A DNA stretch of 64,000 nt from an uncultured Alphaproteobacteria bacterium (GCA_944393215.1 CALXZL010000002.1:485-64484); one strand, 5' to 3'. Shown: positions 1,382 to 7,909, numbered from the stretch's first letter. The notes: generated by a model not told the origin, from the letters alone. Numbers and translations: made by a program.

Positions 1382-2335
1382 ATGGCATTTTGGAGCAGTT
1401 GGTTTATTCCCAAACCGTTTAATGAAGGTTATCTGCCCGAATTAGACGGACACAAGGTTTATTTCAGAGAGTTTGGCAACCCTAAAGGCGAGCCGATTGT
1501 TTGTTTTCACGGTGGTCCGGGTTTTTGGTCCAGAGCCGAAACGGCAAAGAAATTTAATTTGAAAAAATATCGAATTATCATGTTTGACCAAAGAGGCTGT
1601 GGCAAATCCAAACCTGCCGGATACATGGAACATAATACCACGCAAGATAATATTGATGATGTGGTACGTTTATTGGAGTTATTGGAAATAAACAACAAAG
1701 TCATATTATTTGGCGGATCATGGGGCTCAACCATGGCATTAATGTTTGCCATAAGTTATCCTAAAGTAGTCAAAGCTCTGATTTTATCTAAAATTTTTTT
1801 AGCCAATAAAGATTCTCAAAATTGGGAGCTCAAACAAAGCGGCTTGTTTTATCCGGATATGCTGGAAGGCTTAAAAGGCAACATATCAGACAATTATCTG
1901 ATTCCCGAATATTACGCCAAACAGATAAATTCCGAAAATTTGGAACAACAAACAAATGCTGCCACCAAATATGGCTGTTGGGAACGAATTTTAGGAAGTT
2001 TGGATCCTAAATTCGGCAACTATATTCCCGATGAAAAAGAAATTAATATGCAAAAAATATATATCAATTACGCCGCCCAAAACTTTATGATGGAAGATGA
2101 CGAAATCATAGATAATGCCGCCAAAATTGATCATATTCCGACCTTGATTGTACATAACCGTTTGGATTTCATCTGCCCGCCGATAAACGCTTATCGTCTG
2201 CATAAAGTTTTGCCGATGTCAAAACTGATATTTATCCCCGCCAAAGGGCACTCCAGCAAATTGTTGGATGAAACTTTACGTATGGAAATGAAGGAATTTT
2301 TACAAAAGTTGGAGAGGAATAATGACGGAAAGTAA
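1382..2335 (+). CDS. pip: Proline iminopeptidase (S33 alpha/beta hydrolase)
   Basis: HGGPG, DQRGCGKS, GGSWG nucleophile, RLDFICP (Asp), GHS (His). Confidence 0.88.
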   Translation: MAFWSSWFIPKPFNEGYLPELDGHKVYFREFGNPKGEPIVCFHGGPGFWSRAETAKKFNLKKYRIIMFDQRGCGKSKPAGYMEHNTTQDNIDDVVRLLELLEINNKVILFGGSWGSTMALMFAISYPKVVKALILSKIFLANKDSQNWELKQSGLFYPDMLEGLKGNISDNYLIPEYYAKQINSENLEQQTNAATKYGCWERILGSLDPKFGNYIPDEKEINMQKIYINYAAQNFMMEDDEIIDNAAKIDHIPTLIVHNRLDFICPPINAYRLHKVLPMSKLIFIPAKGHSSKLLDETLRMEMKEFLQKLERNNDGK

Positions 2336-2657
2336 GCTTTTCCTAAAAGAAAATCCCACAATGGCGGATTTTCAACAATATGTCAAAGAAATGAAAGCCG
2401 AAAGAGGGTTTAGAGTTGAACCGATTTATGAGTGTTGCTTGCTTGCGGAAGAAGTAGGAGAACTTATTTCGGCAGTCAGAAAAAATACCAAAGGCGGCAG
2501 TATCGGCAGCGGTTCGGTTGCCGGAAATGTTAAGCTTGAATTGGCAGATGTATTAATATATCTTTGTTCCATTGCCAACATACACGGCATCAATTTGGAA
2601 GAAGCATTCAGAGAAAAAGAAGAAATTAACAAACAAAGAACCTGGAAAAGACTATGA
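2322..2657 (+). CDS. MazG-like all-alpha NTP pyrophosphohydrolase
   Basis: LAEEVGEL...ELADVLIYL...GINLEEAF motifs; overlaps pip by 14 nt. Confidence 0.88.
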   Translation: MTESKLFLKENPTMADFQQYVKEMKAERGFRVEPIYECCLLAEEVGELISAVRKNTKGGSIGSGSVAGNVKLELADVLIYLCSIANIHGINLEEAFREKEEINKQRTWKRL

Positions 2658-3334
2658 AAAAAATTGCGATTATTGCCGCCATGAGCAGCGAAATTAACTC
2701 AATTAAAGCCTTGTTAACAAACATAGAAGAAAAAGACGGATATATCACCGGAAAAATCGGTGATAAAGAAATTACCTTAATTCAAAGCGGTATCGGCAAG
2801 GTCTGCGCCGCAGTCAAGACGACCGAACTGATTGATAAATTTAAGCCCGATTGCGTGATAAACTCCGGGGTTGCCGGCGGTATCGGAGATGAGGTTAAAC
2901 AAATGGATATTGTGGTTGGAACAAGAACTGTTTATAATGATGTTTGGTGTTTGGAGCCTAACGCTTATGGGCAAGTGCAAGATTTTCCGTTGTATTTTGA
3001 GGCAGAGAAAAGTTTAGCCGACAAAATAGAAGAGGGTGAACATAACGGTATCACTATTCACAAAGGCTTGATAGCAAGCGGAGATAAGTTTATTGCAGGT
3101 ATTGAGGAAGCCCAAAATATCCGCCGTTTATTTAATGAGGCTTTGGCAGTAGATATGGAATCTTGCGCCGTTGCACAAGTTTGTTACATGAAAAAAACGC
3201 CTTTTATCAGCCTACGCATCATCAGTGATAATCCGTTGAGAAGTAATGACAATCATCGGCAATACGCCGATTTCTGGGGCGAAATGGCAAATAAATCCTT
3301 TGCCGTATTAAAAAATTTGTTAAACCGCATTTAG
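2654..3334 (+). CDS. mtnN: 5'-methylthioadenosine/S-adenosylhomocysteine nucleosidase
   Basis: IIAAMSSE, SGIGKVCAA, INSGVAGG, SGDKF, AVDMESCAVAQVC, LRIISD; ATGA overlap with the upstream gene. Confidence 0.93.
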   Translation: MKKIAIIAAMSSEINSIKALLTNIEEKDGYITGKIGDKEITLIQSGIGKVCAAVKTTELIDKFKPDCVINSGVAGGIGDEVKQMDIVVGTRTVYNDVWCLEPNAYGQVQDFPLYFEAEKSLADKIEEGEHNGITIHKGLIASGDKFIAGIEEAQNIRRLFNEALAVDMESCAVAQVCYMKKTPFISLRIISDNPLRSNDNHRQYADFWGEMANKSFAVLKNLLNRI

Positions 3335-3344
3335 GAGAAGAAAT

Positions 3345-6070: not shown

Positions 6071-6733
6071 ATGCGAGAACTCAAACGCTTATACCGTATC
6101 AAAGTTGTCTTTATTGATTGGCATAAAACTTTGTGTTCTCGCGTTTTTTTTCAATTTATCAAACGCCGCAACAAAAAGCTATTTGACAAGCTGGAACATC
6201 GCTTGTTTGAGGAAATGCCGCTTGCCAAATTTATTGATTGGATGAAGGGTTTAGTTAACAAAGAAGAAATTATTAAAGAGCTGTGCCAAGATGATTTAAA
6301 TATCTCAACCGTCAGCAAAATTTTTCAAGCCAGTTGCGAAAAGATGAAATTAGACCGCCCGGAATATAAAAAATGGATAAAAAGAATCAGAGATAAAGGC
6401 AAAAAAGTGGTGATTGCCACCGATAACGTGGATGCTTTTGAAGAATATACCGTTCCGGCACTAAAATTAACCAAACATTTTGACGCCATTCTCTGTTCAT
6501 CAAGCTTAAAATATTTAAAACACGATTCAAAAGGAAAGAAATTGTTGTTTTTTGACGATTTTTTAAGAAATAATAATATTAAATATGAAGAAGCAATTTT
6601 ACTGGATGATGATGAAGAACTCATACGTTTTTGTAAAAAATTCAAAATGCAGGGAAGAATAATTTCATCTCCAGAAGACATGTTACATAGTTTAATGGAA
6701 ATAGAGGCCAGTTGTGACCGATGTGAATTTTGA
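6071..6733 (+). CDS. HAD-superfamily hydrolase-like protein, copy 1 (atypical motif I)
   Basis: VFIDWHKTL (motif I), IATDN (II), LKHD (III), LLDDD (IV). Confidence 0.75.
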   Translation: MRELKRLYRIKVVFIDWHKTLCSRVFFQFIKRRNKKLFDKLEHRLFEEMPLAKFIDWMKGLVNKEEIIKELCQDDLNISTVSKIFQASCEKMKLDRPEYKKWIKRIRDKGKKVVIATDNVDAFEEYTVPALKLTKHFDAILCSSSLKYLKHDSKGKKLLFFDDFLRNNNIKYEEAILLDDDEELIRFCKKFKMQGRIISSPEDMLHSLMEIEASCDRCEF

Positions 6734-7358
6734 TAAAATACAGGTAATCTTTATAGATTGGTATTTAACCTTAACCTCAGTTACATTTTTAAATAAATTG
6801 AAAATAGAAAATCATGCCGTATTTAAAAAATTCATTGAAATTATTTTTGAGCAAAATCCCAGTGGTTGGCAATATGACTGGGCAAGAGGAAAATTAGCCA
6901 AAGAAGATGTAGCACAAAAAATTTCCCAAGCCGGAATTATGGAATATGACAACGTTTTAAAAACCTTTGCCGATTGTTGTGCACATCAAACCGTTGATTT
7001 TCCGGAAGTTTTCAAAATCATAAATACGATCAGAGAAAAAGGCAAAAAAGTTGTTTTAGCAACGGATAATTGGGATGTTTTCTGTGATTATACAATTCCA
7101 AACCTTGGTTTAGATAAATATTTTGATGACATTATCTCATCTAACCAAGTAGGATTTTTAAAAAGAGATGAACAACCTAAGTCACTGCCTTTTTTTGATA
7201 ATTATTTAAAAAACAACCATATAGCATATCAAAATAGCTTATTAATCGATGATAATGCCTTAAACATAGATATTTGTCAAAAGCACCAAATGGCAGGGAT
7301 CATGGTCAAAGACAGCCGCGATACGGTTAATATATTGCAACAAATGGCTCAAAAGTAA
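6714..7358 (+). CDS. HAD-superfamily hydrolase-like protein, copy 2 (tandem paralog)
   Basis: IFIDWYLTL, LATDN, LKRD, LIDDN; GTG start with GAGG upstream. Confidence 0.75.
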   Translation: MTDVNFDKIQVIFIDWYLTLTSVTFLNKLKIENHAVFKKFIEIIFEQNPSGWQYDWARGKLAKEDVAQKISQAGIMEYDNVLKTFADCCAHQTVDFPEVFKIINTIREKGKKVVLATDNWDVFCDYTIPNLGLDKYFDDIISSNQVGFLKRDEQPKSLPFFDNYLKNNHIAYQNSLLIDDNALNIDICQKHQMAGIMVKDSRDTVNILQQMAQK

Positions 7359-7372
7359 AAAAGGAGCAAAAC

Positions 7373-7909
7373 ATGAAACAAGAATTGAAATATTTGATAA
7401 ATATATTAGGAAAATTGAAGGAAACCAATCGCAGCGGATGGAAAAAAAAGAAAATAAAAAATCCTGAGACCGTTGCTGCTCACAGTTATGGTGTATGTTT
7501 GCTGACACTTTTGTTTGCTCCGGCACATTTAGATAAAGAAAAATGCCTGAAAATGGCAATAATTCACGACATACAAGAAGCCTTGGTTGGAGATATTACC
7601 CCGTATGATGACATCACTGCGGAAGAAAAATCGCAAATTGAAGCGCAGGCTGTTTACCAAATTGAAAAACAAATCAAAATTCCCGGATTAAAAGACTTAT
7701 TCATGGAATATGAAGCCAAAGAAACACCGGAAGCGCGTTTTGTAAAAGATATGGATAAATTGGATGCCGTTTTGCAAGCCAAATATTATGATGAAAACCA
7801 AAAGACCAAAGATAAAATTTTCAATGAATTTTACAATTACGCTTTTCTGCATACCAGCAAAAACGAAGAAATTGTATCAAAATTATTTGAGATAGTAGCA
7901 AAAATCTAG
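7373..7909 (+). CDS. HD-domain 5'-deoxynucleotidase (YfbR/HDDC2-like)
   Basis: LKETNRSGW, ETVAAHSY, AIIHDIQEALVGDITP, FVKDMDKLD. Confidence 0.88.
   Translation: MKQELKYLINILGKLKETNRSGWKKKKIKNPETVAAHSYGVCLLTLLFAPAHLDKEKCLKMAIIHDIQEALVGDITPYDDITAEEKSQIEAQAVYQIEKQIKIPGLKDLFMEYEAKETPEARFVKDMDKLDAVLQAKYYDENQKTKDKIFNEFYNYAFLHTSKNEEIVSKLFEIVAKI

Follow-up and report, generated by a model that had tools for sequence, protein, structure and literature searches.

Why should enzymes that trim peptides and enzymes that cleave nucleotides share a single run of genes? The question is raised by a stretch of 64,000 nucleotides (nt) from an uncultured gut alphaproteobacterium (GCA_944393215.1 CALXZL010000002.1:485-64484), here called the window, in which positions are counted from the first letter. 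Positions 1382–7909 hold eight tightly packed open reading frames (ORFs), all on the + strand: pip, mazG, mtnN, tldD, pmbA (tldE), two genes for HAD-fold hydrolases (HAD1 and HAD2) and one for an HD phosphohydrolase. The original prediction, made from this DNA alone, was that these genes form one coupled operon whose products together dismantle peptide–nucleotide conjugates. Having compared the block with related loci, we give somewhat better than an even chance to a different reading, namely that housekeeping hydrolases have been assembled here into a composite operon, specific to one lineage, that serves no dedicated pathway. The inference of one pathway is not supported, since the halves of the block occur apart, mazG is an accessory gene at the level of strains, and phosphohydrolases have been gained and lost at the locus.

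The block and its counterparts in related genomes

How closely are the eight genes joined? Read directly from the sequence, the junctions in gene order are −14, −4, +10, −1, +9, −20 and +14 nt. Gene calls made independently on three metagenomic contigs of identical sequence returned the same eight genes, and the predicted ORFs, coordinates and spacings were all reproduced. A purine-rich ribosome-binding site of the GGAG/AGGA type lies 5–10 nt ahead of every start codon, including the two that are not ATG (TTG in tldD, GTG in HAD2).

Do these genes stay together in relatives? Our comparison was anchored on TldD and took one genome per species, yielding 64 loci of 20 kb, each of which was searched by tblastn and phmmer with the eight block proteins and five annotated flanking genes. 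Three architectures can be read from these loci. In clade A (TldD 63–85% identical; about 20 loci, metagenomic ones included) the order is sir2, pip, an optional mazG, an optional His_Phos gene, mtnN, tldD, pmbA, HAD1, HAD2 and HD, followed by nudix, gnat, a TPR-methyltransferase gene and rpsD. The junctions of clade A are nearly fixed: −1 between tldD and pmbA and −20 between HAD1 and HAD2 throughout, 9–12 nt between mtnN and tldD, and 7–10 nt between pmbA and HAD1. The unrelated flanking genes (sir2, nudix-like, GNAT, TPR-methyltransferase, rpsD) are conserved as much as the block. The conservation is best read as synteny of the whole neighbourhood, not as a signal specific to the eight genes, and because the unrelated flanks are equally syntenic it would lend no independent support to a coupling of functions.

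The sister clade B (L021–L027; TldD 57–60%) has the same flanks around a shorter core, in the order sir2, pip, tldD, pmbA, gnat and nudix, with no mtnN, HAD, HD or mazG homologue within 10 kb. In the third architecture, type C (L077/L078), sir2 is followed by a single-copy HAD gene (motif I D-W-F), further on by a metallophosphatase gene on the − strand, and then by mtnN behind a P-loop protein gene and by GNAT; pip, tldD and pmbA are absent from the locus. The type C sir2 product is 75–78% identical to that of clade B and 68–73% to that of clade A, and the ECF sigma factor is 77% identical to that of the window. The one neighbour common to all three architectures is sir2. The composite may have been ancestral to all three and then differentially reduced. 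Whether ancestral or not, its peptidase and nucleotide halves are functionally separable: at this one site beside sir2, each is retained where the other is missing. The search of gene neighbourhoods thus found the arrangement confined to one clade, with its halves split between sister genomes, and this largely disposes of the proposal that the eight products form one pathway for peptide–nucleotide conjugates.

What do the same genes adjoin further afield? Among Clostridia, other Firmicutes and Spirochaetes, 47 tldD–pmbA loci were compared, and all 47 lack the other six families within 10 kb. In E. coli the tldD and tldE genes are unlinked to one another and are not known to adjoin genes for Pip, MtnN, HAD or HD. 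The nearest outside homologue of mtnN (L075) adjoins luxS, and that of the HADs (L006) has a canonical DWDGTL motif and an unrelated context. The nearest outside homologues of HD likewise lie in unrelated contexts; one is solitary (L090; the rpsD of its bacterium is 65% identical), the other of high guanine-plus-cytosine (GC) content (L092). Outside the alphaproteobacterial group the nearest relatives of TldD are from Clostridia, at about 50% identity, and not from other Proteobacteria, in a scan biased by its use of query-derived peptide patterns. In the type C loci (L077, 2827–6687, and L078; a gut alphaproteobacterium of 48% GC), mtnN overlaps translationally a gene for a 204-residue P-loop (GxxGxGKS) protein with no Pfam match.

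Within clade A the block itself varies. The mazG gene is absent from L004, L009, L011, L014, L015 and L016, the boundaries at the stop codon of pip being clean and the same in each, and L008 and L009 encode identical HAD2 proteins yet differ in mazG, which is therefore a presence/absence allele at the level of strains. Where present, MazG is 94–98% identical across sublineages in which Pip is 85–90% identical. Because mazG is more conserved than its neighbours, this suggests that it has spread by recombination. The nearest outside homologue of MazG, L089 (MT838117.1; 70% identity, GC 50%), adjoins genes for SSB and a periplasmic binding protein. It is recorded as ‘UNVERIFIED: Bacteriophage sp.’ from human faeces, and a phage origin of mazG was considered and rejected: the record has no block genes, other phage MazG proteins reach at most 37% over most of the query, and MT838117.1 may be bacterial DNA. 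In one public run (X2) some 25 substitutions are clustered in about 110 nt of mtnN (2914–3021) between near-identical flanks; recombination between strains over a short tract could account for them.

Other phosphohydrolase genes come and go as well. L018 has an extra histidine phosphatase gene (His_Phos_1; 8675–9295 of that locus) between mazG and mtnN, and a segment of the same size occupies that place in L020, L079 and L080. All four loci also hold a second nudix homologue, which in L018 (15160–15939), where it follows the first, Pfam confirms as Nudix-fold. The HAD1–HAD2–HD segment diverges faster than the remainder (HAD2 46–71% and HD 52–74% identical where TldD is 80–85%) and is lower in GC (0.315–0.339 vs 0.378–0.419).

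How might such a composite operate? A promoter region in the conserved 105-nt spacer between sir2 and pip would give rise to one polycistronic mRNA, on which overlapping or nearly abutting stop and start codons would couple translation, and the products would then work as separable modules. In the first, concerned with peptide recycling, TldD and TldE would be made in register via their 1-nt overlap and would form the heterodimeric ‘pencil-sharpener’ metalloprotease that trims unfolded peptides processively from the N terminus; the Pip-like aminopeptidase would take off N-terminal proline, plausibly complementing that trimming. In the second, MtnN would clear 5'-methylthioadenosine, S-adenosylhomocysteine and 5'-deoxyadenosine, with MazG, a nucleoside triphosphate (NTP) pyrophosphohydrolase, as an optional addition. 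The third would comprise phosphoester hydrolases, namely the two atypical HAD paralogues, possibly acting as a pair on some phosphoester, and an HD nucleotidase like HDDC2 and YfbR. The HD protein and, where present, MazG would serve as nucleotide house-cleaning enzymes. These modules would have come together as genes were gained and lost at a single locus beside sir2, and their shared role would be at most a general one in recycling or house-cleaning.

Several observations weigh against a composite without a common purpose. Within clade A seven of the eight always keep together and the junctions are strikingly constant, the pattern expected from selection for co-expression. The occurrence of HAD and mtnN near sir2 in a second lineage suggests that the composite may be ancestral and long kept together. 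All of the products hydrolyse small peptides, nucleotides or phosphoesters, an enrichment beyond random neighbours, and the gene inserted in one branch is also a phosphatase, so that enzymes of this kind seem to accumulate at the locus. As to expression, only one metatranscriptome held any of the region, in the form of a single 472-nt contig inside pip; the remaining runs resemble DNA metagenomes.

Transcription and control of the block

If the junctions are so constant, is co-expression itself what has been selected? The intergenic region that separates pip from the divergent sir2 (1277–1381; 105 nt) presumably holds the promoter or promoters, and a GGAGG ribosome-binding site lies at 1373–1377. 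Alignment of 10 orthologous spacers revealed a block of about 47 nt (approximately 1293–1340; TATTAAAGATTATATATGTTAAAAAAACAACTTTTTTGTTTTGTTAT) that is near-invariant in the clade and is kept even where the proteins share just 60–70% identity. We regard this block as a candidate for a shared promoter or operator. The spacer contains no promoter at the threshold of our scan, and a search against Rfam, which yielded four tRNAs alone in the whole window, recognised neither a riboswitch nor a leader ahead of pip.

A conserved spacer block and a constant junction geometry are what one would expect of a regulon for nutrient scavenging, or for recycling the by-products of nicotinamide adenine dinucleotide (NAD) and S-adenosylmethionine. 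In such a regulon co-expression would itself be what is selected: an auxotrophic gut bacterium would degrade imported peptides and nucleotides jointly, yielding amino acids, nucleosides and bases, perhaps under control shared with the divergent sirtuin. Phosphohydrolases have been gained repeatedly at the locus (His_Phos_1, the second Nudix-fold gene, mazG), sir2 is constant in the three architectures, and a transporter of the peptide type is encoded nearby, all of which would suit this explanation. On the other side, MtnN acts specifically on adenosines substituted at 5' and not on nucleosides at large; the sister lineages manage with one half at the locus; and neither a regulator nor a riboswitch was found. 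We consider such a regulon unlikely, while according it some weight beside the composite operon that we prefer.

Is the block one transcription unit at all? In a consensus scan of 400–9400, terminator-like matches numbered 12 (8.9 ± 3.0 in shuffled sequence) and promoter-like matches 30 (27.8 ± 5.8 in shuffled sequence). No convincing internal terminator was seen within the eight genes, as had been predicted, and the sole strong hairpin in the scanned region (538–565) lies outside the block. Promoter-like hexamer pairs do occur within mtnN (3204–3232), HAD1 (6438–6580) and HAD2 (7274–7336), and in L020/L080 (5976–6267) the gap between HAD2 and HD measures about 290 nt, where elsewhere it is −4 to +14 nt, and may accommodate an independent HD promoter. 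The composition of the HAD–HAD–HD segment also differs, as noted above. These features would suit internal promoters, for example ahead of tldD or of HAD1 and HD, that divide the genes among two or three transcripts, the close spacing being due to compaction of the genome. In the window rnfBCDGEA (19413–24337) is packed equally tightly, so that tight co-directional runs are not unusual there, and tight packing is a feature of this genome, true operons included. Against division of the block, the promoter-like matches are at the level of chance, no terminator-like site stands between the genes, and the stop/start overlaps (−14, −4, −1, −20) are conserved. Splitting of the unit by internal promoters or terminators had been named at the outset as evidence that would speak against the proposal; in the scanned region, matches of both kinds are no more frequent than chance. 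We regard division into several transcripts as quite improbable and infer co-transcription of the eight genes.

The gene products and the case for a shared substrate

What reactions might the products catalyze? The identities first proposed agree with Pfam and NCBIfam throughout, Pip falling under one model's cut-off and the HADs matching weakly, and Pip, MazG, MtnN, TldD and HD retain complete catalytic motifs. Pip (1382–2335, +) is an S33 alpha/beta-hydrolase (Pfam Abhydrolase_1 and Hydrolase_4) that resembles prolyl aminopeptidases, with the nucleophile motif GGSWG at residue 111. Against the prolyl aminopeptidase model TIGR01249 it scores 228.1 bits, under the cut-off of 259.75, and among solved structures it comes nearest to the prolyl aminopeptidases of Serratia and Xanthomonas, with E about 1e-48.

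TldD (3345–4727, +), the catalytic subunit of the TldD/TldE metalloprotease, has all three PmbA_TldD Pfam domains (PF01523, PF19290, PF19289), HEACGH at residue 243 and the cysteine of GMCG at residue 431; an HExxxH motif with a remote cysteine is the metal-site feature described for TldD (Ghilarov et al. 2017, PMC5810440). Its partner PmbA/TldE (4727–6061, +; PF19290 and PF19289) is non-catalytic, and a motif check found in it neither HExxxH nor the GMCG cysteine. Both subunits score under the cut-offs of the E. coli equivalog models (TldD 333 vs 513; PmbA 133 vs 438). In 27 of 27 alphaproteobacterial loci the stop of tldD and the start of pmbA have 1 nt in common, a fixed junction that hints at stoichiometric co-production.

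MazG (2322–2657, +) is an all-alpha NTP pyrophosphohydrolase of 111 residues, the product of the accessory gene. It matches PF03819 at 35.6 bits (cut-off 22) and has intact EExxE and ExxD metal-binding motifs (EEVGE at residue 43, ELAD at residue 73). Its neighbours in the PDB are 2q73/2q5z, which we take to be the integron-cassette iMazG of Robinson et al. 2007 (a paper cited in PMC3383445), the MazZ structure 7ody, and DCTPP1. MtnN (2654–3334, +), the 5'-methylthioadenosine/S-adenosylhomocysteine nucleosidase, exceeds both equivalog cut-offs (NF004079, 188.9 vs 169; TIGR01704, 152.6 vs 73.8) and has both the N-terminal Glu and the Asp of the ‘SD’ motif. The HD protein (7373–7909, +) is an HD_3 phosphohydrolase (PF13023, 133 bits) with the HD motif present. 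It resembles the 5'-deoxynucleotidase-like proteins HDDC2, YGL101W and YfbR, its structural matches being the human protein HDDC2 (E=1e-28) and YGL101W from yeast (E=2e-22), and at 20.4 bits it does not reach the cut-off of 122 set by the NCBIfam YfbR equivalog. The families of MazG and HD would suit a role in nucleotide house-cleaning, in which the peptidases have no part.

How do the two HAD proteins compare with known phosphatases? HAD1 (6071–6733, +) and HAD2 (6714–7358, +; GTG start) are HAD-fold paralogues, 38% identical, whose genes overlap by 20 nt in every locus. Their family assignment is weak: the best NCBIfam matches are TIGR02247 and NF006991, and all model scores are far under the family cut-offs. 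Invariant in the HADs are the nucleophile D15, T117 of motif II, K150 of motif III and D179–D180 of motif IV. At +2, in place of the Asp that serves as general acid/base, each HAD1 has His (motif I D-W-H) and each HAD2 has Tyr or Phe (D-W-Y/F), so that the classical DxDx(T/V) motif I is absent. We take YihX also to lack the Asp at +2, a point that the alignment did not confirm, MAFFT having mis-registered the YihX N terminus. An AlphaFold2 model of HAD2 (pLDDT 95.3) has a Rossmannoid fold with a C1 cap. The nearest folds are the N-terminal phosphatase domain of sEH (sEH-N) and E. coli YihX (TM 0.65–0.73), together with uncharacterised HADs of Bacteroides, Porphyromonas and Deinococcus. To judge from this model, the two proteins resemble sEH-N and YihX rather than nucleotidases, and with the Asp at +2 replaced, the suggestion that they take phosphate off nucleotides finds no specific support.

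Is the replacement peculiar to this locus? A profile search of 1.84 billion representatives (E<=1e-30), with clustering at 50% identity, delineated a distinct F-x-D-W-x-x-T-L subfamily of at least 173 clusters. Among the 135 representatives with a readable motif I, the +2 residue is Y in 37, N in 27, D in 26, H in 23, F in 8, S in 7 and A in 4, with others besides; Asp thus occupies this position in just 26 of 135. Domain fusions, one with a PBECR4 RNA-nuclease and one with GT2, were considered as hints of function and set aside as inconsistent and too few. A metagenome scan with the HAD alignment found nine loci, of which four belong to the same clade, and the high-GC loci lack related neighbours. 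With its general acid/base Asp usually replaced, the subfamily has a chemistry that deserves attention.

Could the eight products act in sequence on one substrate? The original prediction pictured a dedicated pathway for peptide–nucleotide conjugates, be they microcin C (McC)-like Trojan-horse antibiotics or aminoacyl and peptidyl adenylates. Pip and TldD/E would remove the peptide, after which MazG, HD, the HADs and MtnN would remove pyrophosphate, phosphate and base. In its favour, each of the eight gene products is a hydrolase for one of the kinds of bond concerned. TldD/E is also able to act on a substrate of this sort, as the prediction assumed: in work attributed to Tsibulskaya (2017), cited in PMC9239234, it reportedly processes a peptidyl-cytidylate precursor in Yersinia pseudotuberculosis, although this is a maturation step inside the producer cell. 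A GNAT gene is close by, and 4 kb downstream a permease of the OppC/YejE type is encoded together with a double ABC ATPase, YejABEF being the importer of McC in E. coli (PMC9239234).

Set against these points is the locus itself, whose halves occur apart at the same site in the closest relatives and whose mazG is dispensable. The chemistry fits poorly as well. MazG, HD and HAD enzymes cleave P–O bonds, and none is known to cleave a P–N bond. By contrast, the toxic core of McC holds a phosphoramide (P–N) link, and removal of the peptide from McC activates the toxin rather than destroying it (PMC9239234). The HADs are like sEH-N and YihX, not like nucleotidases. The known McC detoxifiers are the S66 carboxypeptidase MccF, the S51 peptidase MccG, the HIT phosphoramidase MccH/HinT and the GNAT acetyltransferase MccE2 (PMC9239234); with Pfam and NCBIfam the eight proteins gave no S66, S51 or HIT match, and the sole GNAT is generic and lies outside the operon. 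PADLOC, applied to ten proteins, returned a generic PNP-superfamily match for MtnN, none for the other nine, Sir2 included, and no defence system. Adjacent to the block there is no mccB-like, precursor or modification gene. We judge a dedicated conjugate pathway to be exceedingly unlikely.

A looser coupling, in which the peptidase core and the nucleotide and phosphoester hydrolases act on one class of hybrid substrate and which the constant gene order within the clade would reflect, is very unlikely too. The candidates would be peptidyl- or aminoacyl-nucleotides, AMPylated or ADP-ribosylated peptides left by proteolysis, and imported Trojan-horse antibiotics, with the HAD pair supplying a chemistry undescribed for its fold. 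Were the products so coupled, TldD/E, whose physiological role beyond microcin maturation is still unclear, would gain defined metabolic partners. Two kinds of biosynthetic cluster were also considered and rejected: a cluster for peptides made on ribosomes and modified post-translationally, with TldD/E as leader peptidase (the ORFs of 1–16608 either fall in other families or have no Pfam match, and include no precursor and no YcaO, MNIO, PEARL or ThiF-like modification gene), and an mcc cluster (no precursor or modification genes present).

If the composite operon that we favour is an accretion of independent genes, it carries a caution. Operon-like runs in compact genomes can join enzymes that share only the label ‘hydrolase’, and synteny within one clade is no proof of a pathway. 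With its three architectures and a mazG allele that differs between strains, the locus is a clear natural case of modular operon assembly and decay around an anchor, sir2.

Flanking genes and comparison with known systems

What surrounds the block in the window? On its left and divergent from pip is a sir2/cobB-type gene for an NAD-dependent deacylase (548–1276, −). On its right a gene for a Nudix-fold protein (7906–8559, −) converges on HD, whose end it overlaps by 4 nt, and is followed by a generic GNAT gene (8619–9146, −), outside the block and on the opposite strand. The sirtuin and the GNAT are as first described; the ‘Nudix’ is marginal (23.6 bits vs a cut-off of 21.1), lacks the canonical box GX5EX7REUXEEXGU and is closest to the models of isopentenyl-diphosphate isomerase (IDI) and YfcD, so that it is unlikely to be a nucleotide pyrophosphatase of the conventional kind.

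Further downstream, at 11681–16608, a 771-residue ORF without any Pfam match heads a run that continues with the OppC/YejE-like permease (13997–15031) and the double-ABC ATPase with oligo_HPY (15031–16608). The whole looks like an ABC importer of the peptide type whose first component is unrecognisable. The Rnf genes (19413–24337, −) constitute a complete, tight operon for the Rnf complex, with rnfB, C, D and G and two Rnf-Nqr membrane subunits, which fits an anaerobic gut lifestyle.

How does the block compare with systems already described? As originally supposed, the combination of eight genes is not described in the literature searched. It appears to be a new arrangement around the well-known tldD–tldE pair, and no new mechanism is indicated. 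To the immunity systems for McC (MccE2, MccF, MccG, MccH/HinT) the likeness is one of theme only, consisting in the action of TldD/E on a peptidyl-cytidylate and in the nearby GNAT and peptide-type ABC importer; the enzyme families that define those systems are absent from the operon, as is any mcc biosynthetic gene. MazG and HD are closer to their counterparts among the house-cleaning hydrolases (MazG/DCTPP1, the integron iMazG, YfbR/HDDC2), with which they share nearest structures and, in the case of MazG, the same motifs; elsewhere such genes are normally scattered and single, whereas here they stand in one block with peptidases. With HAD subfamily IA variant 3, which includes sEH-N and the glucose-1-phosphatase YihX, the two HADs share the nucleophile Asp, the Thr of motif II, the Lys of motif III and the DD of motif IV. 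They differ from it in the residue at Asp+2 (His in HAD1, Tyr or Phe in HAD2) and in being tandem paralogues with a fixed 20-nt overlap. The closest correspondence is with TldD/TldE of E. coli (PMC5810440): two paralogous genes, TldD alone having HExxxH and a Cys ligand at the C-terminal side. That the two genes adjoin and overlap here is compatible with a 1:1 complex.

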